Shown piece by piece: positions 1 through 9,855 of a stretch of 9,855 nt of DNA. The stretch is from a virus (Duplodnaviria; Heunggongvirae; Uroviricota; Caudoviricetes): positions 1-9,855 of the IMG/VR virus record IMGVR_UViG_2617270976_000011; one strand, written 5' to 3'. Under the pieces are notes generated by a model. The model was not told where the DNA came from. It made no database searches and saw only the letters and a list, made by a program, of their open reading frames with translations. Within the stretch, counting starts at the first letter, position 1. Every line of letters starts with the position of its first letter. Made by a program: the position numbers and the translations under genes.

Positions 1-996
1 TTATGGACGCATTATGGACATTCCTGACACCGGGTTAAGAGTCACAGCATCTTGTAAGAAATCCGGTGCAAAGTGTGCGTAGGTCATAGTTTGCTGAATG
101 TTAGAATGACCCAGGATGCGCTGCAATGTGATTATGTTACCTCCATTAATTATAAAATGTGTGGCAAATGTATGCCTCAAAACATGTACTGCTTGTCCGT
201 CAGGTAAATCGGGTTTTACTTCCCTGAGAGCGTTACGCACTTTGTAGTAACTGGCATTAAAAAGCCTGCCTGAATTTTTGGTCTTGATCCTTTTAATCAG
301 GTCCTGCGAAACGGGAATTGTCCTGCGCTTTCCGTTTTTAGTTTTCATAAACGTAACCATCTGGTTAATGATGTGTTCAGCTTTCAAATTAGACACTTCA
401 CTCCAGCGTCCACCAGTAGAAAGGCAGACTAGAGTTGCATTTAACTCATCACCATCAAGCATGGATAACAGCCGCGTAATCTCTTCACTGGACAAAAAAG
501 CCATTTCTGTAACAGCTTCACGTAACCGCTTAACCTCACGGAACGGGTTGTGAGAGTGGTATTCACCGGCGTCAATTAACTTGGTGAACATCCCGCTCAT
601 TATTGCCAGATGCCGATTTACGCTGGCTGGTTTTAGACCATCGTTCATCATTACAACTCGATAATCAGTTATCGTTTTCTTTGTTAACTGGTCAGCTCTG
701 GACACTCCCATTTCTGCAAATTTGGCGATTATTGTCGTCAAACGCCCCCGTTCAATATTTCCACGCTCATGTGATTTTCCGTGATATATCCACCATCTGC
801 CTAACAACTCTGTAAGAGTTCGGCGGTCGGCTGGCTTCTCCAGCCACTCTTTGTTGTGGTAGTTAACCAGCACATGACGTTCGAATGCTTGAGCTTCACC
901 TTTAGTTTTAAATTTCCGCCTGATACGTTTTCCATCTGCACCCTGCGGTCTGACGTCCACTTCATAACGACCATCATCGAGCTTTTTAATAGACAT
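1..996 (-). CDS. int: Phage tyrosine integrase, P2 family, complete (331 aa)
   Basis: Full-length minus-strand ORF. The C-terminal catalytic region has HxxR (HVLRHTFATHF) and a conserved Tyr (MTYAHFAPDF). The N-terminus MSIKKLDDGRYEV matches my recollection of P2 Int (337 aa). A GGAGGG Shine-Dalgarno lies just upstream of the ATG at 994-996. Confidence 0.9.
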   Translation of the reverse strand: MSIKKLDDGRYEVDVRPQGADGKRIRRKFKTKGEAQAFERHVLVNYHNKEWLEKPADRRTLTELLGRWWIYHGKSHERGNIERGRLTTIIAKFAEMGVSRADQLTKKTITDYRVVMMNDGLKPASVNRHLAIMSGMFTKLIDAGEYHSHNPFREVKRLREAVTEMAFLSSEEITRLLSMLDGDELNATLVCLSTGGRWSEVSNLKAEHIINQMVTFMKTKNGKRRTIPVSQDLIKRIKTKNSGRLFNASYYKVRNALREVKPDLPDGQAVHVLRHTFATHFIINGGNIITLQRILGHSNIQQTMTYAHFAPDFLQDAVTLNPVSGMSIMRP

Positions 997-1089
997 AAAG
1001 CCCTCCGATGACGCTGTTTACTTCTACTACTTGAAAATTAATGCAATTTTCTTTCGTACATTTACTGCACACATATGCTGAATAAATCG

Positions 1090-1401
1090 TCAGCCAGTCT
1101 TTTGGTCTGAGTGGTGCAAGGTTGTTGAGTCTTGCCCAATGTGCGCGAGCGCCGGGGCTATTTGTCCGCCAGCGGGATCAGTTTCATCAAACATGAACCA
1201 GTCACGGTACTTGCGAAATCTTTCTGGCTTGAAAAATTTCATACCTGCGTCAAAAGACATCTTTACTTTTCCCTGCTCATATCCAGCATAGGTGTTGTAG
1301 TTAATTCCAGTTAATTCAGCAACTTGCTTCCTTGTCATTCTTTCTGATTCCCGAATAAGTGCGAGTTTCTCTGCTTGAGATGTGATTTGTGTATTTGACA
1401 T
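1090..1401 (-). CDS. C: P2 C-type immunity repressor (about 103 aa)
   Basis: The track ORF (1090-1449) contains an internal Met at 1399-1401 that begins MSNTQITSQ, and its C-terminus GQIAPALAHIGQDSTTLHHSDQKTG matches my recollection of P2 C (99 aa). It lies immediately upstream of int on the same strand, as in P2. The 16 extra N-terminal codons in the track ORF are probably not translated. Confidence 0.8.
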   Translation of the reverse strand: MSNTQITSQAEKLALIRESERMTRKQVAELTGINYNTYAGYEQGKVKMSFDAGMKFFKPERFRKYRDWFMFDETDPAGGQIAPALAHIGQDSTTLHHSDQKTG

Positions 1402-1505
1402 GAATTGTCGTATCTCGTAATTTATGTTGTATGCGACACACCAGAACAACGCAGAGCGGCTTCAAATAGCTCTGGTTGAATGGCACCAAAGTTGAGGATA
1501 TCAAA
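1402..1505. promoter_or_regulatory. Immunity/early switch intergenic region between divergent C and cox starts (expected Pc/Pe promoters and repressor operators)
   Basis: 104-bp AT-rich spacer between the divergent start codons. It contains imperfect direct repeats TGTCGTAT (1406-1413) and TGTTGTAT (1425-1432). P2 C repressor is known to bind direct repeats; the specific sites here are not verified. Confidence 0.35.
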
Positions 1506-2690
1506 ATGAGTATTGGATCAGAAATGAATAACGATGTTGGAGAAAAAGTATCTGATCTCACAAAAAGTAAAAAATGTGACATCAAACTTGCAGCCGCACC
1601 GTCGGATTTGCTCTCGAAAGAGGGTTTTGCTCTTTACATCGGTAAGACGCCTCGCGCTGTTGCTGAAATGGCGAAAGCAGGCAAGTTACCAGCCTTTTAT
1701 ATGACGGACCCATTAAAGCCGGGCGGTCATGCTGAGTTATGGATTAACCGGGGCGGTGCTGCGGGGTATATCGCGAAATACATTTCAAAAAACATCGACG
1801 GCTATGCACTGGATGGTCAGCTCGATAACGACACCGGCAGGCCGCTGAAAGACACTGCCGCGGCTGTTACCGCATGGGCGTCAACGTGGCGCATTCCGCA
1901 ATTTAAAACGGTTGGCCTGCCGACAATGGGGGCTTACCGTGAACTACGCAAATTACCTCGCGGCGTCAGCATTGCTGATGAGTTTGACGAACGCGTCGAG
2001 GCTGCACGCGCTGCCGCAGACAGTGGCGATTTTGCGCTGTATATCAGCGCGCAGGGTGGGGCAAATGTCCCGCGCGATTGTCAGACTGTCAGGGTCGCCC
2101 GTAGTCCGTCGGATGAAGTTAACGAGTACGAGGAAGAAGTCGAGAGAGTGGTCGGCATTTACGCGCCGCATCTCGGCGCGCGTCATATTCATATCACCAG
2201 AACGACGGACTGGCGCATTGTTCCGAAAGTGCCGGTCGTTGAGCCTTTGACTTTAAAAAGCGGCATCGCCGCGCCTCGGAGTCCTGTCAATAACTGTGGA
2301 AAGCTTGCCGACGGTGGCGATCCAGTTATGACACCTACGCCGTCTGAGCATGCCGCAGCGGTGCTAAATCTTGTCGATGATGGGGTTATTGCATGGGATG
2401 ACCCCGAAGTTGTGACGGTGCTCAGGAGTGCATTAAAACACGGCGCGCCGCAGCAAAATCGACAGCAAAGAAGCGATGAGCCATTAAAATCGAATCAGAT
2501 AGCACCATCAGGGCGAATGACAAAAGCCGAGAGGGCTCAGATTCCGCGCATCCGCTTCGAACTGGCGCAGCAGGGTATCACGCCGCAGCGGTGGGAACTT
2601 CAGGCGCTGGCTCGTGGCGGAATAGTGGTTTATGGCGAAAAAAGATTTGTATACCCGATAGCGGACGAGTGGGTGAAGCATGAAGGGTGA
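1506..2690 (+). CDS. In-frame deletion fusion: Cox-like HTH N-terminus (about 80 aa) joined to the C-terminal ~310 aa of rolling-circle replication initiator gpA; probably a non-functional remnant
   Basis: The N-terminal segment FALYIGKTPRAVAEMAKAGKLPAFYMTDPLKPGGHAELWINR resembles P2 Cox. It runs directly into GYIAKYISKNIDGY, the paired-tyrosine (Y-x-x-x-Y) motif of phiX174/P2 A-type initiators. Gene B and the N-terminal ~450 aa of A are absent. A GAGGA Shine-Dalgarno precedes the ATG at 1506; the track ORF starts earlier at 1476. Confidence 0.7.
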   Translation: MSIGSEMNNDVGEKVSDLTKSKKCDIKLAAAPSDLLSKEGFALYIGKTPRAVAEMAKAGKLPAFYMTDPLKPGGHAELWINRGGAAGYIAKYISKNIDGYALDGQLDNDTGRPLKDTAAAVTAWASTWRIPQFKTVGLPTMGAYRELRKLPRGVSIADEFDERVEAARAAADSGDFALYISAQGGANVPRDCQTVRVARSPSDEVNEYEEEVERVVGIYAPHLGARHIHITRTTDWRIVPKVPVVEPLTLKSGIAAPRSPVNNCGKLADGGDPVMTPTPSEHAAAVLNLVDDGVIAWDDPEVVTVLRSALKHGAPQQNRQQRSDEPLKSNQIAPSGRMTKAERAQIPRIRFELAQQGITPQRWELQALARGGIVVYGEKRFVYPIADEWVKHEG

Positions 2691-2753
2691 TTTATATCCA
2701 TCTAAATCATGATGTTATGATGGCCGTGTGAGTTCTTTTCTGATTGGGGCTGC

Positions 2754-2928
2754 GTTCGACGGCTTGAAATGTTGTAAATGCTCATAATCTGGTTTAAAGT
2801 GTTTTTATGCCAACGACTAGGAGCATCTCCAGTCATAAATGTTGGCCTCTACAGGCCTTTATATAGTGTTGCTCTTGTACTGCCTTCTCTTTCGAGAGAA
2901 GGTATGTACAAGAAGTAAAGCCTGCGAA
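2754..2928 (+). ncRNA. Candidate retron msr-msd non-coding RNA (boundaries approximate)
   Basis: Non-coding leader directly upstream of, and co-oriented with, the RT gene. Candidate a1 TTCGACGGCTT (2754-2764) is complementary to candidate a2 AAGCCTGCGAA (2918-2928) at 9 of 11 positions, with a G immediately 3' of a1. A strong hairpin at 2876-2910 sits just 5' of a2, where an msd stem would be. Not confirmed by folding or covariance. Confidence 0.3.
2876..2910 (+). repeat. Inverted-repeat hairpin: 8-bp perfect core CCTTCTCT/AGAGAAGG with a TTCG (UUCG) tetraloop, extendable to about 15 pairs with one G-T wobble and a 1-nt bulge
   Basis: Read directly: 2883-2890 CCTTCTCT, loop 2891-2894 TTCG, 2895-2902 AGAGAAGG; outer arms TGTAC (2876-2880) and GTACA (2906-2910). 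Confidence 0.8.
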
Positions 2929-3016
2929 GGGAGGGTGTCTGGGGTGAGGAAAGACTGAGAGTTAAAGCATTCATCTTAGAATCCATTCAACTCAAAAAAC
3001 AAAAGCTCAGCCAACG

Positions 3017-4006
3017 ATGAAACCCCTTAGTCTCGAAAAAGCCTTCAATATTGCATTCTTCGAAAAAGATTCCTTTCAAAACTTTCTTTCGTTTGAACCA
3101 TTTCAACAAACTAAATTTATAACCTTTGATGAAAGGTTAATTGCTGAGCCCACTTCTAAACTAAAAGAGTATCACAAATTCATAAATGAATTTGTTCTTT
3201 CATACTTGAAAGTAAATAAGGATGTTGTGTTTTCGTATAGAAAAGGAAGCAGCACTTATGATGCAGTAAAACTTCACGCCTGTAGTAAGATATTCTTCAA
3301 TACTGATATTAAAAGCTTTTTCCCATCGATAACTCGTGAATATGCACGATCAGTTTTAGTTGATAACTTATCGAACGTTCCCATTTCCGATTTAAATATA
3401 CACTTGGATAAAATTTTAGATTATATTATTATCGATAATTCGTTGCCTGTAGGGTTCCCGACATCACCAGCTTTCAGCAATGCATGTTTATATGACTTTG
3501 ATGTTGAGATGCAGCAATATTGTATTAACCATGAATATATATTCACACGCTATTCAGATGATATTATTATTTCCTCTGAAAATGATGAGGGCTTTGAGAA
3601 TATTCATTCTGTAGTAAGTGACCTGCTGGGTGAGTTTGGGAAGGGACATTTCAAACTAAACTCAGCAAAAACTAAATTGATTAAAAAAGGCAGTAAGATT
3701 AAGCTGCTGGGGATGGTTATTTTACCGTCTCAGATAGTCTCTGTTGATATTAAAATAAAAAGAAAGCTTGAGCATTTGATTCATTTTTATGTAACGGATA
3801 AAGATAAATTTATAGATTCTATAATAAAAGATCCTAAGGTTAAAACTAGCGGATTGAATGATAGTGAGATCTTGGAAAAGGGCGTTAATACAGTTTCTGG
3901 TCTTTTGAATCATATAAACACAATTGATAAGAGTTATCTCGATAAGCTAAAGAGAAAATACGGAAATACGATTGTCGATATGCTTTTTTACAAGAATGTA
4001 AATTAA
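3017..4006 (+). CDS. Reverse transcriptase, retron-type (329 aa)
   Basis: RT motifs are in canonical order: SSTYDAVKLHA (NAxxH-like box, residues 78-88), DIKSFFPSI (motif A, 97-105), LPVGFPTSPAFSN (QG-P-SP box, 143-155), YSDD catalytic box (179-182, nt 3551-3562), LLGMVI (230-235). Small size, no maturase or endonuclease domain, a non-coding structured leader upstream and an effector gene downstream all fit a retron. AT-rich coding sequence. Confidence 0.85.
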   Translation: MKPLSLEKAFNIAFFEKDSFQNFLSFEPFQQTKFITFDERLIAEPTSKLKEYHKFINEFVLSYLKVNKDVVFSYRKGSSTYDAVKLHACSKIFFNTDIKSFFPSITREYARSVLVDNLSNVPISDLNIHLDKILDYIIIDNSLPVGFPTSPAFSNACLYDFDVEMQQYCINHEYIFTRYSDDIIISSENDEGFENIHSVVSDLLGEFGKGHFKLNSAKTKLIKKGSKIKLLGMVILPSQIVSVDIKIKRKLEHLIHFYVTDKDKFIDSIIKDPKVKTSGLNDSEILEKGVNTVSGLLNHINTIDKSYLDKLKRKYGNTIVDMLFYKNVN

Positions 4007-4007
4007 A

Positions 4008-5360
4008 ATGAAAATAAATATTGAGATCTCGAAAATCCAGCATGTTGAACATATGTCATTTGCTATTGATCTTTCTGAAAATAAACTGACTTGCATTGTA
4101 GGAAAGAACGGTGCTGGAAAGACAACGCTAATCAAAGCAATTAAAAATTTACAATCAGCAGATACATTCATAAAGACATCTTCTAGATATATATTCAATC
4201 CTGACAGTAGTATAGTATATAATATTAATGATCAAGATATAGTATATGTCTATGATGAGAATTTGAAGGTAATAGATACTAAGCAAATAATTCCAGCAGA
4301 TATAAAATCCAATCTTTATGTCGAGTTGCCCATTCCTCATGGAATGAGGTTCAATAACTTCCCAACACTTAGTAAAATTGATACTGAACTTAGAAAAAGT
4401 ATTGCGTTTGAAAGCTATAGCGTTCCCGAGGATTTGATAAATATACTCAATGAGGTATATCAGTCTTCTTCTTACAATAATCTTAAAGCATTTTCTGTAA
4501 AAAATGAAATTTTCTATTTCAGATTGAATGAGAACGGAACATACATAAGGGAGGATTACTTTAGCTCGGGTGAGTATTTTATTTTGAATTTATTTAGAAT
4601 GATTGAGCTCAAAAGAAAATTCATTGTCATAGATGAGATAGATATATCACTAGACTCTTCGGCGCAAGTCCATCTTATAGCAGTGCTAAGGAAATATTGT
4701 CAGAGACACTCGGTGAATATTGTATTCACAACACATTCACTTGCTTTAATGCAAACGCTGAATGATGATGAATTGTACTATATGTGCGAAGGTGATGCTG
4801 GAACTACAATTACAAATCGATCATATAATTATATAAAAAGTACGCTTTTTGGATTTAAAGGATGGGATAAGTACATTCTTACTGAAGATGAAGTTCTGCA
4901 AAATTTCTTAGAATATATAATTAATGCTCCTGGGAATGATTACTTCTACGAATATAAAATAATATATGTTGGTGGAGGAACTAATGTCATTGATTTAATG
5001 CGTCGTAATGAGAGAGAGAGCTTTCTCACGACTCAACAGAATGTGATCTCAGTGTTAGACGGAGATCAATTAGGTCAAAGGCATGCTCGAGGTGAAAATA
5101 TTTTATGCATACCTTTCCAAAGCGTTGAGAAGGATTTCTATCAAGCATACGGCCAAGATGAATCGATCCCGAGAGTTACAACTAGAGGTAACGATAAACT
5201 TGATAAGCAAGTTTATCGAGGGGTAGTGAAAACCTATGACAACGGCTGGGATGAAACTAGGATTTTTGAATACCTTGAGAGGTTAAAGCCTGATGAATGT
5301 GAGGCTTTCAGGCAAAAAATTAGAGCATTTCTCCAAAGAAATATTTCGGCAGAGGGTTGA
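4008..5360 (+). CDS. OLD-family ABC-type ATPase with C-terminal TOPRIM-like nuclease domain (450 aa); probable retron effector
   Basis: Walker A GKNGAGKTT (residues 32-40, nt 4101-4127), ABC-signature-like FSSGE (185-189), Walker B FIVIDEID (205-212), H-loop TTHS (241-244). The C-terminal half has TOPRIM-like acidic residues: ILTEDEV (Glu ~293) and VLDGDQ (DxD, 351-353). The ATG lies 1 nt after the RT stop (TAA 4004-4006, ATG 4008-4010). Confidence 0.8.
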   Translation: MKINIEISKIQHVEHMSFAIDLSENKLTCIVGKNGAGKTTLIKAIKNLQSADTFIKTSSRYIFNPDSSIVYNINDQDIVYVYDENLKVIDTKQIIPADIKSNLYVELPIPHGMRFNNFPTLSKIDTELRKSIAFESYSVPEDLINILNEVYQSSSYNNLKAFSVKNEIFYFRLNENGTYIREDYFSSGEYFILNLFRMIELKRKFIVIDEIDISLDSSAQVHLIAVLRKYCQRHSVNIVFTTHSLALMQTLNDDELYYMCEGDAGTTITNRSYNYIKSTLFGFKGWDKYILTEDEVLQNFLEYIINAPGNDYFYEYKIIYVGGGTNVIDLMRRNERESFLTTQQNVISVLDGDQLGQRHARGENILCIPFQSVEKDFYQAYGQDESIPRVTTRGNDKLDKQVYRGVVKTYDNGWDETRIFEYLERLKPDECEAFRQKIRAFLQRNISAEG

Positions 5361-5502
5361 ATATAAGCTTCGGGATCTCATGCCTCTCTATCTGCATGAA
5401 ATTGCATTTGATAATTCCTATTTTTCTCGTGAACTGTGTCACGTTAGGCGCAGCTCAGGGCTCATAATGCATCTGCATTAAAACCGCCCCACGAAGCGGG
5501 CG

Positions 5503-5521
5503 GGCGAGGCGGGGAAAGCAC
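5503..5521. other. Candidate P2-type cos cohesive-end sequence GGCGAGGCGGGGAAAGCAC
   Basis: The 19-mer matches my recollection of the P2 19-nt cohesive end. It sits in a GC-rich non-coding stretch between the cargo cassette and head/tail remnants, which is where cos lies in a P2 prophage (between old and Q). Identification is from memory, not a search. Confidence 0.5.
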
Positions 5522-5663
5522 TGCGCGCTGGCGGTGGTGCTGATTTTATTTTTTCAGCGTCTGAGCGCGTCGTGAAGGCGTTTACTTGGCCTGCTGGGGC
5601 GTTGGTGTGTCTGCGGGATTTTTTGTGCGGTGATGAGCGTGTGAGGGCGTGATGACAGGGTAT

Positions 5664-5685
5664 AAAAAAGCCGCCCGCAGGCGGC
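5664..5685 (-). terminator. Intrinsic terminator-like hairpin for leftward transcription (GCCGCC-TGCG-GGCGGC followed by TTTTTT on the minus strand)
   Basis: Plus strand shows AAAAAA (5664-5669), GCCGCC (5670-5675), CGCA loop, GGCGGC (5680-5685). This lies immediately downstream of the minus-strand ORF stop at 5691-5693. Confidence 0.55.
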
Positions 5686-5690
5686 GATGT

Positions 5691-6209
5691 TCAGCCGTTG
5701 TCAGTGTCCAGTGAGTAGTTTTTAAAGCGGATGACCTCCTGACCGAGCCAGCCGTTTATCTCGCGGATCCTGTCCTGTAGCGGGATAAGCTCATTGCGGA
5801 CAAAGACCTTTGCCACTTTCTCAATATCACCCAGCGACCCGACGTTCTCCGGCTTGCCTCCCATCAACTGAAAGGGGATGCGGTGCGCGTCCAGCAGGTC
5901 AGCGGCGCTGGCTTTTTTGATATTAAAAAAATCGTCCTTCGTTGCGACTTCACTGAGCGGGATAATTTTAATGCCGTCGGCTTTCCCCTGCGGGGCATAG
6001 AGAAACAGATTTTTAAAGTTGTTGCGGCCTTTCGACTTGACCATGTTTTCGCGAATACGGGATGCGTGACCGTTCAGCTCGCGCAGTGATTTTTGTGTTT
6101 CCCGGATATCCCCCGACAGCGACCTGCTCGCTGTACGGATGGATTTAAACGGGCGGGATGCCTGGTCAACAGCCCTGAGCAATACCTGTAATTTTACATT
6201 GTTACTCAT
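5691..6209 (-). CDS. Chimeric ORF (172 aa): N-terminal ~60 aa consistent with the start of tape-measure gene T, fused to a ~110-aa portal-like (gpQ-like) C-terminal segment
   Basis: Its ATG (6207-6209) overlaps the stop of the upstream E' frame (TAA 6203-6205) as ATGAGTAA, the position expected for the start of T after E/E'. The C-terminal part (AHRIPFQLMGG ... NELIPLQDRIREINGWL) resembles a conserved C-terminal portal motif. Its own frame is closed by a TGA 18 codons upstream of the ATG. Confidence 0.45.
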   Translation of the reverse strand: MSNNVKLQVLLRAVDQASRPFKSIRTASRSLSGDIRETQKSLRELNGHASRIRENMVKSKGRNNFKNLFLYAPQGKADGIKIIPLSEVATKDDFFNIKKASAADLLDAHRIPFQLMGGKPENVGSLGDIEKVAKVFVRNELIPLQDRIREINGWLGQEVIRFKNYSLDTDNG

Positions 6210-6491
6210 TCGTGTTTCCGCTTCGCCGGAGCGCCTTTTCGCGCCATGTGATGAGTTCGGTCAGGCTCATGGGATACAGTTCTGATGGCGGCCAGTGAAA
6301 TATCACAGCCACATCCGCCATCAGGTCATCGACCGAGAGATTTTTCGGAAACGTCACTGCACCGAGTTCGGCGACAAAAAACCGACCACCTTACCGGCCA
6401 GCGCCACAAGGTCAGGCAGTTCCAGCGCGGCGACTTCCTGCTCGGTCAGAACAGGTAAAGCTGCTGATAGCGACCGGAGGCCGTGGATTTT
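6203..6491 (-). pseudogene. 5'-truncated remnant of tail assembly chaperone genes E and E+E' (programmed -1 frameshift pair)
   Basis: Minus-strand frame 0 reads ...LTEQEVAALELPDLVALAGKVVGFLSPNSVQ-stop, with no start codon and an in-frame stop at 6492-6494. The -1 frame continues from the slippery site as FFVAELGAVTFPKNLSVDDLMADVAVIFHWPPSELYPMSLTELITWREKALRRSGNTNE-stop. Seven codons after the slip in frame 0 and a 58-codon extension fit the 91-aa and 142-aa sizes I recall for P2 E and E+E'. Confidence 0.5.
6375..6381 (-). other. -1 programmed ribosomal frameshift slippery heptamer T_TTT_TTG
   Basis: Plus strand is CAAAAAA at 6375-6381, i.e. TTTTTTG on the minus strand, positioned in frame as X_XXY_YYZ seven codons before the frame-0 stop. 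I recall the same heptamer as the P2 E/E' frameshift site. Confidence 0.5.
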
Positions 6492-6526
6492 TCACCGCGA
6501 CGGTTAAACACCTTCGCCGGTCGACC

Positions 6527-9256
6527 ATGTGCGAACGGGTGGTCACTGTAGTCGGTGAAGATTTCCGGCTTTCCCAGCAGGATTTCAGCCGCTTTGTGCT
6601 GGATTTTCTGGTGTTCGGTAATGCGTTTCTGGAAAAGCGTTACAGCACCACCGGTAAGGTCATCAGACTGGAAACCTCACCGGCAAAATATACCCGCCGT
6701 GGTGTGGAGGAGGATGTTTACTGGTGGGTGCCGTCCTTCAACGAGCCGACAGCCTTCGCGCCCGGCTCCGTGTTTCACCTGCTGGAGCCGGATATTAATC
6801 AGGAGCTGTACGGCCTGCCGGAATATCTCAGCGCCCTTAACTCTGCCTGGCTGAATGAGTCAGCCACGCTGTTCCGCCGCAAGTATTACGAAAACGGCGC
6901 ACATGCCGGATACATCATGTACGTCACTGATGCCGTGCAGGATCGCAACGATATCGAAATGCTTGAGGGATTCCGCAAGACCAGTGCACAGCTTGCCGTG
7001 ACTGGTCATGCACTTGAAAAGGCTCGGCAGGAAGCCGAAGCCCTTGCCACACAGTTTAAAAACACCGAACGTCCGACCCGTGCTCAGGCGAAAGTGCTGG
7101 AATCCGCAAAGCGTGCGGCGGAGGACTTACAGGCGAAATATAACCGCCTGACGGATTCCGTTAAACGCCAGCAGCGGGAACTGGCCGCTGTGGGAATTAA
7201 TACCCGCAATCTTGCACATGATGAGCAGGGACTGAAAAACCGTATCAGTGAAACCACCGCACAGCTTAACCGTCAGCGTGATGCGCTGGCGCGTGTCAGT
7301 GCGCAACAGGCAAAACTTAACGCAGTCAAACAGCGTTATCAGGCCGGAAAGGAACTGGCCGGAAATATGGCCTCAGTAGGCGCTGCCGGTGTGGGGATTG
7401 CGGCGGCGGGAACGATGGCCGGAGTTAAATTGCTGATGCCCGGTTATGAGTTTGCGCAGAAAAACTCAGAATTGCAGGCCGTGCTCGGAGTGGCAAAAGA
7501 CTCCGCCGAAATGACCGCACTCCGCAAGCAGGCGCGCCAGCTCGGCGACAATACCGCAGCCTCGGCAGATGATGCAGCCGGTGCACAGATAATCATTGCG
7601 AAAGCGGGTGGAGATGCTGCGGCTATTCAGGCAGCAACGCCGGTCACACTGAATATGGCACTGGCAAACCAGCGGTCGATGGAAGAAAACGCGCAATTGT
7701 TGCTGGGGACTAAGGCATCCTTTCAACTGTCAAATGATGATGTCAGCCATGTGGGCGACGTGTTGTCGGCAACGATGAATAAGTCGGCGGCTGATTTTCA
7801 GGGACTCAGTGATGCACTGACTTACCTCGGCCCGGTTGCGAGGACGGCAGGTGTAAGTATTGAGCAGGCAGCGGCCATGACCGGTGTGCTGCATGACAAT
7901 AACATCAGGGGGTCAATGGCGGGTACGGGTAGCAGTGCCGTTGTCACCCGATTACAGGCACCGACTGGAAAAGCATGGGATGCACTCAAAGAGCTTGGCG
8001 TTAAAACCTCGGACAAAAAGGGAAATATGCGTCCGTTGTTCACCATTCTGAAAGAGATTCAGGCCAGCTTTGATAAGCATAAGCTGGGAACGTCTCAGAA
8101 GGGGGAATACCTTAAAACCATTTTTGGTGAGGAAGCCCTGAAATCAGCGAACGTTTTACTGGCAGCGGCAGCAAGCGGAAAACTGGATACGCTGACCGCC
8201 ACGCTGAAAGCCTCGGACGGTAAAACGGAAGAGCTGGTTAAAATCATGCAGGATAACCTCGGCGGTGACTTTAAGGAGTTTCAGTCCGCTTATGAGGCGG
8301 TGGGGACTGACCTGTTTGACCAGCAGGAAGGCGCACTGCGTAAGCTCACTCAGACGGCCACAAAGTATGTGTTAAAACTCGACGGCTGGATCCAGAAAAA
8401 CAAATCACTGGCGTCAACCATCGGCCTCATTGTCGGTGGCGCGCTGGCGCTTATTGGCATCATCGGTGCCATTGGTCTTGTCGCCTGGCCGGTTATCACC
8501 GGCATCAATGCCATTATCGCGGCAGCAGGCGCAATGGGGGCAATCTTCACGACGGTTAGCAGTGCTGTTATGACGGCCATCGGGGCGATTAGCTGGCCGG
8601 TTGTGGCCGTGGTGGCCGCCATTGTCGCCGGGGCGTTGCTTATCCGTAAATACTGGGAGCCTGTCAGCGCATTCTTTGGCGGTGTGGTGGAAGGGCTGAA
8701 AGCGGCATTTGCGCCGGTGGGGGAACTGTTCACGCCACTGAAGCCGGTGTTTGACTGGCTGGGTGAAAAGTTACAGGCCGTGTGGCAGTGGTTTAAAAAC
8801 CTGATTGCCCCGGTCAAAGCCACCCAGGACACCCTGAACCGTTGCCGTGACACGGGCGTTATGTTCGGGCAGGCACTGGCTGACGCGCTGATGCTGCCGC
8901 TTAATGCGTTCAACAAACTGCGCAGCGGTATTGACTGGGTACTGGAAAAACTCGGTGTTATCAACAAAGAGTCAGACACACTTGACCAGACCGCCGCAAG
9001 GACTCATGCCGCCACGTATGGCACCGGTGGTTATATTCCGGCGACCAGCTCTTATGCTGGCTATCAGGCTTATCAGCCGGTCACGGCACCGGCTGGCCGC
9101 TCTTATGTGGACCAGAGTAAAAACGAATATCACATCAACCTGACGGGCGGTACTGCGCCGGGGACACAGCTCGACCGCCAGTTACAGGATGCGCTCGAAA
9201 AATACGAGCGGGATAAACGTGCGCGCGCCCGTGCCAGCATGATGCATGACGGTTAA
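6527..9256 (+). CDS. Chimeric long ORF (909 aa): N-terminal ~150-aa portal-like segment fused in frame to ~745 aa of phage tail tape-measure protein (gpT-like)
   Basis: From about residue 160 onward the protein has a long coiled-coil region, a conserved tape-measure core (ASFQLSNDDVSHVGDVLSATMNKSAADFQGLSDALTYLGPVARTAGVSIEQAAAMTGVLHDNN) and Gly/Ala/Ile-rich hydrophobic segments. The first ~150 residues (e.g. FRRKYYENGAHAGYIMYVTDAVQDRNDIEMLEG) are unlike tape measure and look portal-like. No Shine-Dalgarno precedes the ATG, and the frame is open back to 6299 without a start. Confidence 0.75.
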   Translation: MCERVVTVVGEDFRLSQQDFSRFVLDFLVFGNAFLEKRYSTTGKVIRLETSPAKYTRRGVEEDVYWWVPSFNEPTAFAPGSVFHLLEPDINQELYGLPEYLSALNSAWLNESATLFRRKYYENGAHAGYIMYVTDAVQDRNDIEMLEGFRKTSAQLAVTGHALEKARQEAEALATQFKNTERPTRAQAKVLESAKRAAEDLQAKYNRLTDSVKRQQRELAAVGINTRNLAHDEQGLKNRISETTAQLNRQRDALARVSAQQAKLNAVKQRYQAGKELAGNMASVGAAGVGIAAAGTMAGVKLLMPGYEFAQKNSELQAVLGVAKDSAEMTALRKQARQLGDNTAASADDAAGAQIIIAKAGGDAAAIQAATPVTLNMALANQRSMEENAQLLLGTKASFQLSNDDVSHVGDVLSATMNKSAADFQGLSDALTYLGPVARTAGVSIEQAAAMTGVLHDNNIRGSMAGTGSSAVVTRLQAPTGKAWDALKELGVKTSDKKGNMRPLFTILKEIQASFDKHKLGTSQKGEYLKTIFGEEALKSANVLLAAAASGKLDTLTATLKASDGKTEELVKIMQDNLGGDFKEFQSAYEAVGTDLFDQQEGALRKLTQTATKYVLKLDGWIQKNKSLASTIGLIVGGALALIGIIGAIGLVAWPVITGINAIIAAAGAMGAIFTTVSSAVMTAIGAISWPVVAVVAAIVAGALLIRKYWEPVSAFFGGVVEGLKAAFAPVGELFTPLKPVFDWLGEKLQAVWQWFKNLIAPVKATQDTLNRCRDTGVMFGQALADALMLPLNAFNKLRSGIDWVLEKLGVINKESDTLDQTAARTHAATYGTGGYIPATSSYAGYQAYQPVTAPAGRSYVDQSKNEYHINLTGGTAPGTQLDRQLQDALEKYERDKRARARASMMHDG

Positions 9257-9270
9257 GGAGGTGACGAAAA

Positions 9271-9555
9271 ATGATGCTCGCGTTAGGTATGTTTGTTTTT
9301 ATGCGCCAGACGCTGCCACACCAGACCATGCAGCGTGAATCAGATTATCGCTGGCCGTCAAATTCCCGTACCGGTCGTGCAGATATTTACACGGAAACAC
9401 CGGTCAGAGTGTCAGGCTTTAAGCGCGTCATAGACGAGCAGGACTGGACAATCACTAAGGTGACACATTTTCTGAATAATAGCGGCTTCACGACGTCCTT
9501 AGAGCTTGAGGTCAGGCTTTCTGATGTGGAGTACGAAACAGAAGATTATGAGTGA
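9271..9555 (+). CDS. Truncated tail protein remnant (94 aa): gpU-like N-terminus, possibly fused to a gpD-like C-terminus
   Basis: A strong AAGGAGGTGA Shine-Dalgarno (9255-9264) precedes the ATG, 15 nt after the T stop, which is where U sits in the P2 FETUD operon. At 94 aa it is far shorter than U (about 159 aa) or D (about 387 aa), so an internal deletion is likely. The U/D fusion point is inferred, not demonstrated. Confidence 0.45.
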   Translation: MMLALGMFVFMRQTLPHQTMQRESDYRWPSNSRTGRADIYTETPVRVSGFKRVIDEQDWTITKVTHFLNNSGFTTSLELEVRLSDVEYETEDYE

Positions 9556-9636
9556 TGTATTTTGTTTATCTGTTTGTTTTATAAGGATAAATTAACTAAA
9601 ATGGCAACATCAACAAAACCGGAAGAGGTGCTCGCG

Positions 9637-9855
9637 ATGTTTCATTGTCCTTTATGCCAGCATGCCGCACATGCGCGTACAAGCCGCTATATCACTGACA
9701 CGACAAAAGAGCGTTATCACCAGTGTCAGAACGTGAATTGCAGCGCCACGTTCATAACTTATGAGTCGGTACAGCGATACATCGTGAAGCCGGGAGAAGT
9801 CCACGCCGTAAGGCCGCACCCGTTGCCGTCAGGGCAGCAAATTATGTGGATGTAA
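9637..9855 (+). CDS. ogr: Ogr late-gene transcriptional activator, C4 zinc-finger (72 aa)
   Basis: Sequence MFHCPLCQHAAHARTSRYITDTTKERYHQCQNVNCSATFITYESVQRYIVKPGEVHAVRPHPLPSGQQIMWM matches my recollection of P2 Ogr, including the CxxC...CxxxxC zinc-finger cysteines. The track ORF (from 9562) carries 25 extra N-terminal codons that are probably not translated; 9601 is an alternative start. Confidence 0.85.
   Translation: MFHCPLCQHAAHARTSRYITDTTKERYHQCQNVNCSATFITYESVQRYIVKPGEVHAVRPHPLPSGQQIMWM

Follow-up and report, generated by a model that had tools for sequence, protein, structure and literature searches.

A cryptic P2-like prophage at pflA, probably crippled recently, and its rare retron of type I-B1

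The window considered in the current analysis, a stretch of 9,855 nucleotides of caudoviral DNA (IMG/VR record IMGVR_UViG_2617270976_000011), is very likely the whole of an ordinary cryptic P2-like prophage that has been crippled recently and that carries a rare retron of type I-B1. It is also highly probable that selection on its integrase gene (int), its immunity repressor gene (C) and ogr need not be invoked. The ancestor would have been an element of about 31.7 kb with the type I-B1 retron situated between gene A and cos, from which about 21.6 kb would have been lost via five events of illegitimate recombination at microhomologies of 2-7 bp. The intact state of int, C and ogr would then reflect an element too young for point mutations and the location of these small genes at both of its ends, where a deletion that runs into an end has no more than 31 bp left before pflA, or about 320 bp before pflB.

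The window corresponds to positions 3475-13329 of a recovered host-flanked locus (L003), in which pflA lies 31 bp past the stop codon of int, on the same strand as int, and pflB ends 318 bp past ogr. An earlier reading of the sequence alone, referred to here as the sequence-only reading, had noted correctly that the window ends exactly on the stop codons of int and ogr, and had proposed a search of the flanks for att core repeats and the insertion locus. Both have been found. Between pflA and pflB, each end of the element has a copy of a 13-bp core, GTCAGTTATTGGT (L003 3372 and 13442-13454). The two copies are 10,070 bp apart, and on the coding strand the core comprises the G of the pflA ATG and codons 2-5. 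The two junctions of the element are the exact int-proximal and ogr-proximal halves of attP in the viable phages vB_YpM_46, P2_4A7b and S164, and in genomes with an empty site the similarity ends at the core from either side. These are true attL and attR sites, and they delimit an element of just about 10 kb; with host genes at both flanks, it is not a part of a larger intact prophage.

The P2 gene order, int-C-cox...A-hotspot-cos-Q...T-U-D-ogr, is recognised in the element, with all blocks collinear or inverted relative to an intact prophage. The identity to the P2 proteins is 100% for Ogr, 91% for T, 85% for A, 53% for Int and 48% for C. The remnant belongs to a P2-like (Peduovirus) group that integrates at the first codons of pflA. 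The attL junction has been identified in 405 and the attR junction in 404 of 5426 complete E. coli genomes, and pflA lysogens constitute about 7.5% of these genomes. The attB of phiD145 and phiD160 has been reported as MG1655 coordinate 950293 in the older numbering (PMC3448106); addition of 777 for the shift between genome versions, by our own arithmetic and with the pflA start at 951080, places it in the first codons of pflA. The literature search revealed no paper that pairs pflA with P2-like phages, the site appearing there just as this coordinate. The viable pflA Peduoviruses S164, 11W, P2_4A7b and vB_YpM_46 share the int/att module of the window, and their attP has this same 13-bp core along with the leader open reading frame (ORF) of pflA described in a later paragraph. 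Unlike the window they are complete, with lengths of 30-33 kb, and the retron of the window is encoded in none of the phage records examined.

The rearrangements have been mapped by blastn comparison of the window with a seemingly complete prophage of about 31.7 kb, integrated at the same site and carrying the same retron, from the strain AHM21C2872I (coordinates L005). The comparison reveals seven blocks (Table 1) and six junctions, at window positions 1744, 6054, 6446, 6570, 6963 and 9372. These comprise five events: a deletion between cox and A, an inversion with its ends in Q and T, two deletions within the segment so inverted and a deletion between U and D. The cox-A deletion of 3192 bp removed the rest of cox, orf78, B, orf80-83 and the 5' part of A, and its junction at 1744-1747 has a TTAA microhomology. 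The two deletions within the inverted segment removed 10,873 bp and 6,175 bp, and the U-D deletion 1351 bp. The microhomologies of the deletion junctions are TTAA, CAG, GGCTT and an imperfect one of about 6 bp. The inversion between Q (L005 10427|10428) and T (L005 28399|28400) is reciprocal and conserves every base, its two junctions overlapping by 2 bp (AA/TT). The window thus provides a fully mapped case of the dismantling of a P2-like prophage through five short-microhomology events, a base-conservative inversion among them.

Table 1. Features of the window and its blocks of similarity to the prophage of strain AHM21C2872I (L005)
Feature	Window position	Strand or orientation	L005 position	Basis or identity
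int, P2-type tyrosine integrase, 331 aa, intact	1..996	-		Pfam Int_N and Phage_integrase
C immunity repressor, 103 aa, intact	1090..1401	-		HTH_3/HTH_31
C-cox intergenic switch region (Pe/Pc and operators in P2)	1402..1505			by analogy with P2 annotation
cox'::'A in-frame chimera, 394 aa (Cox 1-80 and A 442-756)	1506..2690	+		Pfam Phage_Cox and Phage_GPA tail
predicted retron ncRNA (msr-msd)	2728..2960	+		RNA fold z = -3.2
ncRNA a1/a2 closing stem, long-range	~2730-2750 with ~2938-2958	+		predicted fold
conserved msr hairpin	2809-2846	+		predicted fold and relatives
msd hairpin	2869-2918	+		predicted fold
retron reverse transcriptase, 329 aa, YSDD at 179	3017..4006	+		PADLOC RT_I-B; Pfam RVT_1
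retron effector, OLD-like ATPase-Toprim, 450 aa	4008..5360	+		PADLOC ATPase-Toprim_I-B 596 bits, full length
cos, 19-nt P2 cohesive-end sequence GGCGAGGCGGGGAAAGCAC, intact	5503..5521			exact match to P2 cosL/cosR
T 1-52 and portal Q 224-344 in-frame chimera, 172 aa	5691..6209	-		inversion left junction 6054|6055
inverted segment: 5' end of T, GpE ORF, last ~96 nt of E	6054..6449	-		blastn
GpE-family ORF, 51 aa	6202-6357	-		Pfam Phage_P2_GpE
endolysin K internal fragment, 132 bp, between two deletions	6443..6575	-		blastn
portal Q 93-224, now plus strand	6567..6964	+		inversion right junction 6963|6964
909-aa chimeric ORF: antisense-K leader, Q 93-224, T 52-815	6527..9256	+		Pfam PhageMin_Tail
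U'::'D in-frame chimera, 94 aa	9271..9555	+		blastn, junction, alignment
ogr promoter region and ogr	9556..9855	+		10 mismatches/300 nt vs P2; Pfam Ogr_Delta
ogr, 72 aa, intact	9637..9855	+		72/72 identical to P2 Ogr
block	1-1747	same orientation	1178-2924	99.9%
block	1744-6055	same orientation	6117-10428	99.93%
block	6054-6449	inverted	28400-28005	
block	6443-6575	inverted	17131-17000	
block	6567-6964	inverted	10824-10427	
block	6963-9375		28399-30811	90.7%
block	9369-9855		32163-32649	97.5%

None of the modules of a functional phage (replication, packaging, head, tail and lysis) is complete. About 21.6 kb are gone, and A, Q, K, E, T, U and D survive as fragments only; A is without its first 441 residues, Cox is truncated, and the genes for the terminase, capsid, lysis, baseplate, sheath and tube are lost. 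The element cannot replicate, assemble virions or lyse the host, and as Cox is truncated it probably cannot excise unless Cox comes from a helper. The map therefore bears out the earlier description of replication, head and tail genes as deleted, fused or inverted, and of the element as something other than a functional phage. A satellite-like nature, which the presence of int, cos and ogr and a size near that of P4 might bring to mind, has been considered but is not favoured, as the element is without a replication function and without genes for capsid-size control or helper exploitation, and its Cox is truncated. No known promoter is present upstream of the 909-residue chimera.

The inversion and the K fragment could in principle be mis-joins of short reads, the real locus being a simpler deletion or an intact prophage. 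The source is a draft assembly (JNQT01000004.1) and the structure is unusual, but we consider such an artefact very improbable. A gene-position index places the 909-residue Q'::T' chimera on two contigs, one from GCA_000704325.1 (JNQT01000004.1) and the other from the Logan assembly of SRR1186598, and these NCBI and Logan assemblies, which possibly derive from the same reads, are identical across 13.76 kb. The junctions share 2-7 bp only, there is no repeat able to mislead an assembler, and a contig of 189 kb is continuous through both host flanks. Comparable rearranged elements, including the inverted one of strain PSJ-12 described below, are present in complete genomes.

An invertase of the Cin/Hin type, with AA at the centre of its sites, is encoded by the parent phage type, and a base-conservative reciprocal inversion is the product expected of a serine invertase. 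Scoring of the Q and T sites against the half-sites of the phage's own invertase did not favour them as pseudo-sites: among all AA-centred 26-mers, the Q site ranks no higher than the top 18% and the T site falls within the bottom 1%. An origin of the inversion from such pseudo-sites has been rejected as unsupported.

The genes int, C and ogr are all intact, as had been noted from the sequence, and closer alignment reveals no inactivating change in any of them. The good start contexts claimed for all three do not extend to C, the Shine-Dalgarno context of which is only moderate, and two of the ORF extents have been revised: C is the 103-residue protein and not a 119-residue ORF starting with TTG, and ogr encodes 72 residues and not a 97-residue ORF with a TTG start. 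The Int shares 329 of its 331 residues with that of the AHM21C2872I prophage. Its G144 is the common allele and its M283I, a conservative change, is unique to the window, though P2 Int also has I at this position; the catalytic blocks R/K/HxxR/H/Y are conserved in the alignment with P2 Int. The C protein is identical to that of the AHM21C2872I prophage over all 103 residues, and the region 997-1747, spanning C and the switch, has zero mismatches to that prophage. The repressor and the switch are probably still expressed and would confer immunity to phages of the same immunity type. The 81 bp on the 5' side of ogr are almost identical to the P2 ogr promoter region. In the P2 annotation the late promoters are located between P and O, ahead of V and ahead of FI. 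None of these regions is within the retained blocks, and Ogr is thus left with no target in the element.

The remnant is very young. The left 6 kb have 5 substitutions relative to the AHM21C2872I prophage (99.9% identity), the identity of the right arm to an intact prophage integrated elsewhere is 98.9%, and point-mutational decay has been observed nowhere in the element. The dead fragments are equally free of stop codons, over 763 codons of T and 315 codons of A. A comparison of dN/dS of int, C and ogr across strains, suggested earlier as a check, is uninformative: C has no substitutions, ogr encodes an identical protein and int has one lineage-specific change, which is nonsynonymous. The dead fragment T' serves as a control. 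It differs from the nearest intact T by 16 synonymous and 6 nonsynonymous changes, with a ratio of nonsynonymous to synonymous polymorphism (pN/pS) of 0.12, and thus has the same selection-like signature, inherited from the phage. In a remnant as young as this, intact ORFs and low dN/dS therefore say nothing on domestication. The retained genes reveal no purifying selection beyond that seen in the dead fragments.

The distribution of the structure is very narrow. It is present in exact form in one NCBI assembly and one assembly of an SRA run with identical sequence, i.e. in one strain, and in none of the 5426 complete E. coli genomes, none of which covers at least 80% of the window; inheritance of the same decayed structure across diverged strains has not been observed. 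The survival of the genes has been compared with a null model in which the four observed deletion lengths are placed randomly within an element of 31.5 kb. In this model int survives in 76%, C in 68% and ogr in 93% of the simulations, and int, C, the switch and ogr survive together in 61%, because they are small and located at the ends of the element. Genes near the ends of an element outlast random deletions by geometry.

The cassette between A and cos has been assigned to type I-B1 of the retrons by its non-coding RNA (ncRNA), reverse transcriptase (RT) and downstream effector. The RT and the ATPase form an AT-rich pair (30-35% GC). The RT matches the PADLOC profile RT_I-B with 365 bits (E-value 6.5e-110), and retron RTs of the PDB match it at 1e-22 and weaker. 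The effector, which has a Walker A motif GKNGAGKT at residue 32, a Walker B motif FIVIDE at 205 and DGD at 351, matches the ATPase-Toprim_I-B profile over its full length; the two profile matches together indicate a type I-B retron. A sequence search of the PDB with the effector gave no match at an E-value of 1e-5 or better. The ncRNA has been delimited by folding and by comparison with relatives. Its core is conserved in Erwinia, Kluyvera, Photorhabdus, Pseudomonas, Alcaligenaceae and Shewanella relatives, with compensatory changes at 12 of 29 consensus pairs. The earlier statement that the defence cassette is intact holds, since the ATPase agrees with that of the AHM21C2872I prophage at all 450 residues and the RT differs from it at a single residue, the P273 of the window being the commoner allele (6 of the 10 genomes with the cassette). 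These 10 are among the 5426 complete E. coli genomes, in which the cassette is therefore rare, and the window represents an immobilised natural copy of it.

The order of ncRNA, RT and ATPase-Toprim is the same as that of Retron-Eco8 and the type I-B retrons with class 3 OLD nucleases (PMC10568477), to which the cassette of the window is related by profile and architecture. Eco8 acts by abortive infection that requires the RT, the branching G and Walker A, and its trigger is the phage SSB (PMC10568477). The same mechanism is expected for the retron of the window, which probably still works as an abortive-infection system. It is located in the variable region between A and cos/Q that holds tin and old in P2 and diverse defence systems in P2-like phages (PMC9122126). 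The text of Rousset et al. 2022 does not contain the words cryptic, remnant or degraded and seemingly deals with no decayed prophages, whereas the hotspot of the window is situated in a dead prophage.

Other decayed elements at pflA provide a comparison. Among 17 records of the pflA site with both coordinates readable, an unbiased sample, 15 are of 29-36 kb and two of 24-26 kb, and strongly decayed remnants are thus a minority at this site. Five other decayed elements have been analysed, of which those of E24377A, NCTC9100 and O157:H16 98-3133 were found through similarity to the window and are biased in this respect, and those of EF7-18-58 and PSJ-12 were found without that bias. They share the site and the type of int with the window and are 12-26 kb in length, some with insertion sequences. 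Their cargo is unlike that of the window and includes AAA ATPase systems, an ABC-three-component system and another RT system, and their junctions also differ from those of the window, save for the shared breakpoints described below. The terminase gene P is lost or broken in all five. The element of NCTC9100 has its own in-frame Cox::A fusion of 593 residues (L006 5506-7287), with a breakpoint 8 nt from the cox breakpoint of the window. That of PSJ-12 (NZ_AP027622.1 1258500-1284500) has two large inversions, cox..A-hotspot-Q-P' and O..X', and a J::E deletion; together with the inversion in the window, these indicate that inversions are recurrent in pflA-site prophages.

Maintenance as a defence island with repressor-mediated immunity was the proposal of the sequence-only reading. 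Selection would in that case keep the retron and C, int and ogr would be retained in the unit, and the morphogenesis genes would decay. Immunity and defence are plausible functions of the remnant, but the pattern does not support selection for them, and we regard domestication as rather improbable. A single strain has the structure, the substitutions needed to infer selection are missing, the dead fragments look equally conserved, and the survival of int, C and ogr is the expected outcome of random deletions. Ogr is without a target in cis and Int without a functional Cox partner. The cassette and its ncRNA agree with those found in intact prophages, bar the one RT residue, and the hotspots of P2-like phages are known reservoirs of defence systems (PMC9122126); all six decayed pflA elements, that of the window included, keep hotspot cargo between A and cos as well as C, though three of the five comparators were found by a similarity that favours elements with the same parts, and most elements of the unbiased sample are of nearly full size.

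Some observations weigh against the reading of the window as an ordinary, neutrally decaying remnant. The retron remains intact in just 7% of the neutral simulations, and int, C, the switch, ogr and the retron survive together in 3.75%. Only the retention of the retron is mildly unexpected and hints at selection. The five other decayed pflA elements all keep int, C, hotspot cargo and ogr, a shared retention that is compatible with selection for cargo, with the geometry of deletions and also with a constraint imposed by pflA. All four chimeras of the window are in frame, and for three independent fusions this has a chance of 1/27. The defence cargo, or else the left arm, may have been under some selection.

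The constraint imposed by pflA arises from the structure of attL. At this junction the ATG of pflA is changed to AAG, and in front of it the phage supplies an in-frame leader, MSNLTNCNTTENTATAGATK, of 20 codons that include an ATG. The leader starts 31 bp after the stop codon of int, in the region L003 3372-3474 to the left of window position 1. Three viable phages encode the same leader in their attP, and PflA is annotated as a protein of 265 residues in lysogens. The native upstream region of pflA remains at attR, 10-31 kb off. Terminator prediction on that strand between C and pflA revealed none, and a weak promoter-like match (9/12) is located in the 3' end of int (L003 3512-3485). It is plausible that pflA is transcribed from phage DNA.

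These observations suggest, as a tentative possibility, that integration swaps the start codon and native promoter of pflA for the phage leader, with the result that the int-C arm cannot be deleted and both ends are always kept. The int-proximal arm might not be losable because this phage end supplies the start codon of pflA and probably also drives its transcription, whether through read-through of the C-int operon or through a promoter inside the 3' end of int. A remnant could then not do without the attL end, and perhaps not without int and C. The near equality of the two pflA junctions (405 versus 404) is consistent with this, as is the situation at the P2 site locI, where the int junction is found in 812 genomes and the ogr junction in 1222. 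The K-12 remnant PR-X has lost int and C, and many cryptic P2-like elements have been remarked to be without the regulatory region (PMC3448106). The in-frame leader at attL and in three viable phages, the 265-residue PflA and the lack of a predicted terminator between C and pflA point in the same direction. However, just about 90 bp beside pflA are demonstrably required, and a promoter within them would render int and C dispensable. The excess at locI may come from one or few old events inherited widely, and the pflA-site elements are mostly young and intact. A constraint of this kind on the int-C arm is hence possible but doubtful. If it exists, the activation of pyruvate formate-lyase depends on phage DNA, probably on transcription of the C-int operon, and such a dependence, once confirmed, could be of wider interest. 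At locI, about one element in three is a one-ended remnant like PR-X of K-12.

PR-X (ogrK and yegZ, a D fragment) is like the window a decayed P2-type element with an ogr identical to that of P2, and in both of them ogr is next to a D fragment and adjoins the att site. The comparison with cryptic P2 remnants that was proposed earlier yields a parallel in the retention of ogr with a D fragment. PR-X differs from the window in being of 629 bp, situated at the P2 locI site by cyaR/trhP and without int, C, hotspot and cos, whereas the window has 10 kb at pflA with both ends and the cargo kept. The ogr genes of K-12 and B were reportedly found to be functional by Slettan et al. in 1992.

The six decayed pflA elements have also been mapped onto the AHM21C2872I prophage for a comparison of their breakpoints, which coincide within 0-2 nt between elements while their partners differ. 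The breakpoint L005 28005|28006 in gene E (window 6446) is common to the window, E24377A and PSJ-12, L005 11379 in P to NCTC9100 and 98-3133, and L005 ~10823 in Q (window ~6570) to the window and EF7-18-58. Five coincident pairs have been observed, as compared with about 0.04 by chance in a rough estimate. Common ancestry was considered for the breakpoint at 28005 and rejected, as the right arms differ by up to 8.6% and recent descent is unlikely. The shared breakpoints look like independent events, and the sharing of deletion breakpoints among independent remnants could, once confirmed, be of wider interest. The sequence 5 nt upstream of L005 28005 is the end of a potential hairpin, GGTGCtGCCG...CGGCACC. 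Partial matches to E are rare, being present in about 5 of the 1581 genomes with a match.

Within the msr region of the retron ncRNA, a near-invariant element of 23 nt at 2814-2836, (A/G)CGAC(T/C)AGGAG(C/T)A(T/G)CTCC(A/G)GTCA, corresponds to a bulged hairpin and is kept from E. coli to Pseudomonas, Shewanella and a metagenome-assembled genome of Alcaligenaceae. An Rfam scan of the window matched no retron or other family, and none covers this element.

In several complete E. coli records (e.g. NZ_CP184048.1, NZ_CP076527.1 and NZ_OY754407.1) the matches to the A block of the window, from 1744 onwards, start at record position 1325, which equals the offset of the window 1744 point within gene A. 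Such chromosomes have apparently been rotated to start at the prophage gene A and not at dnaA, splitting the prophage across the origin of the record.

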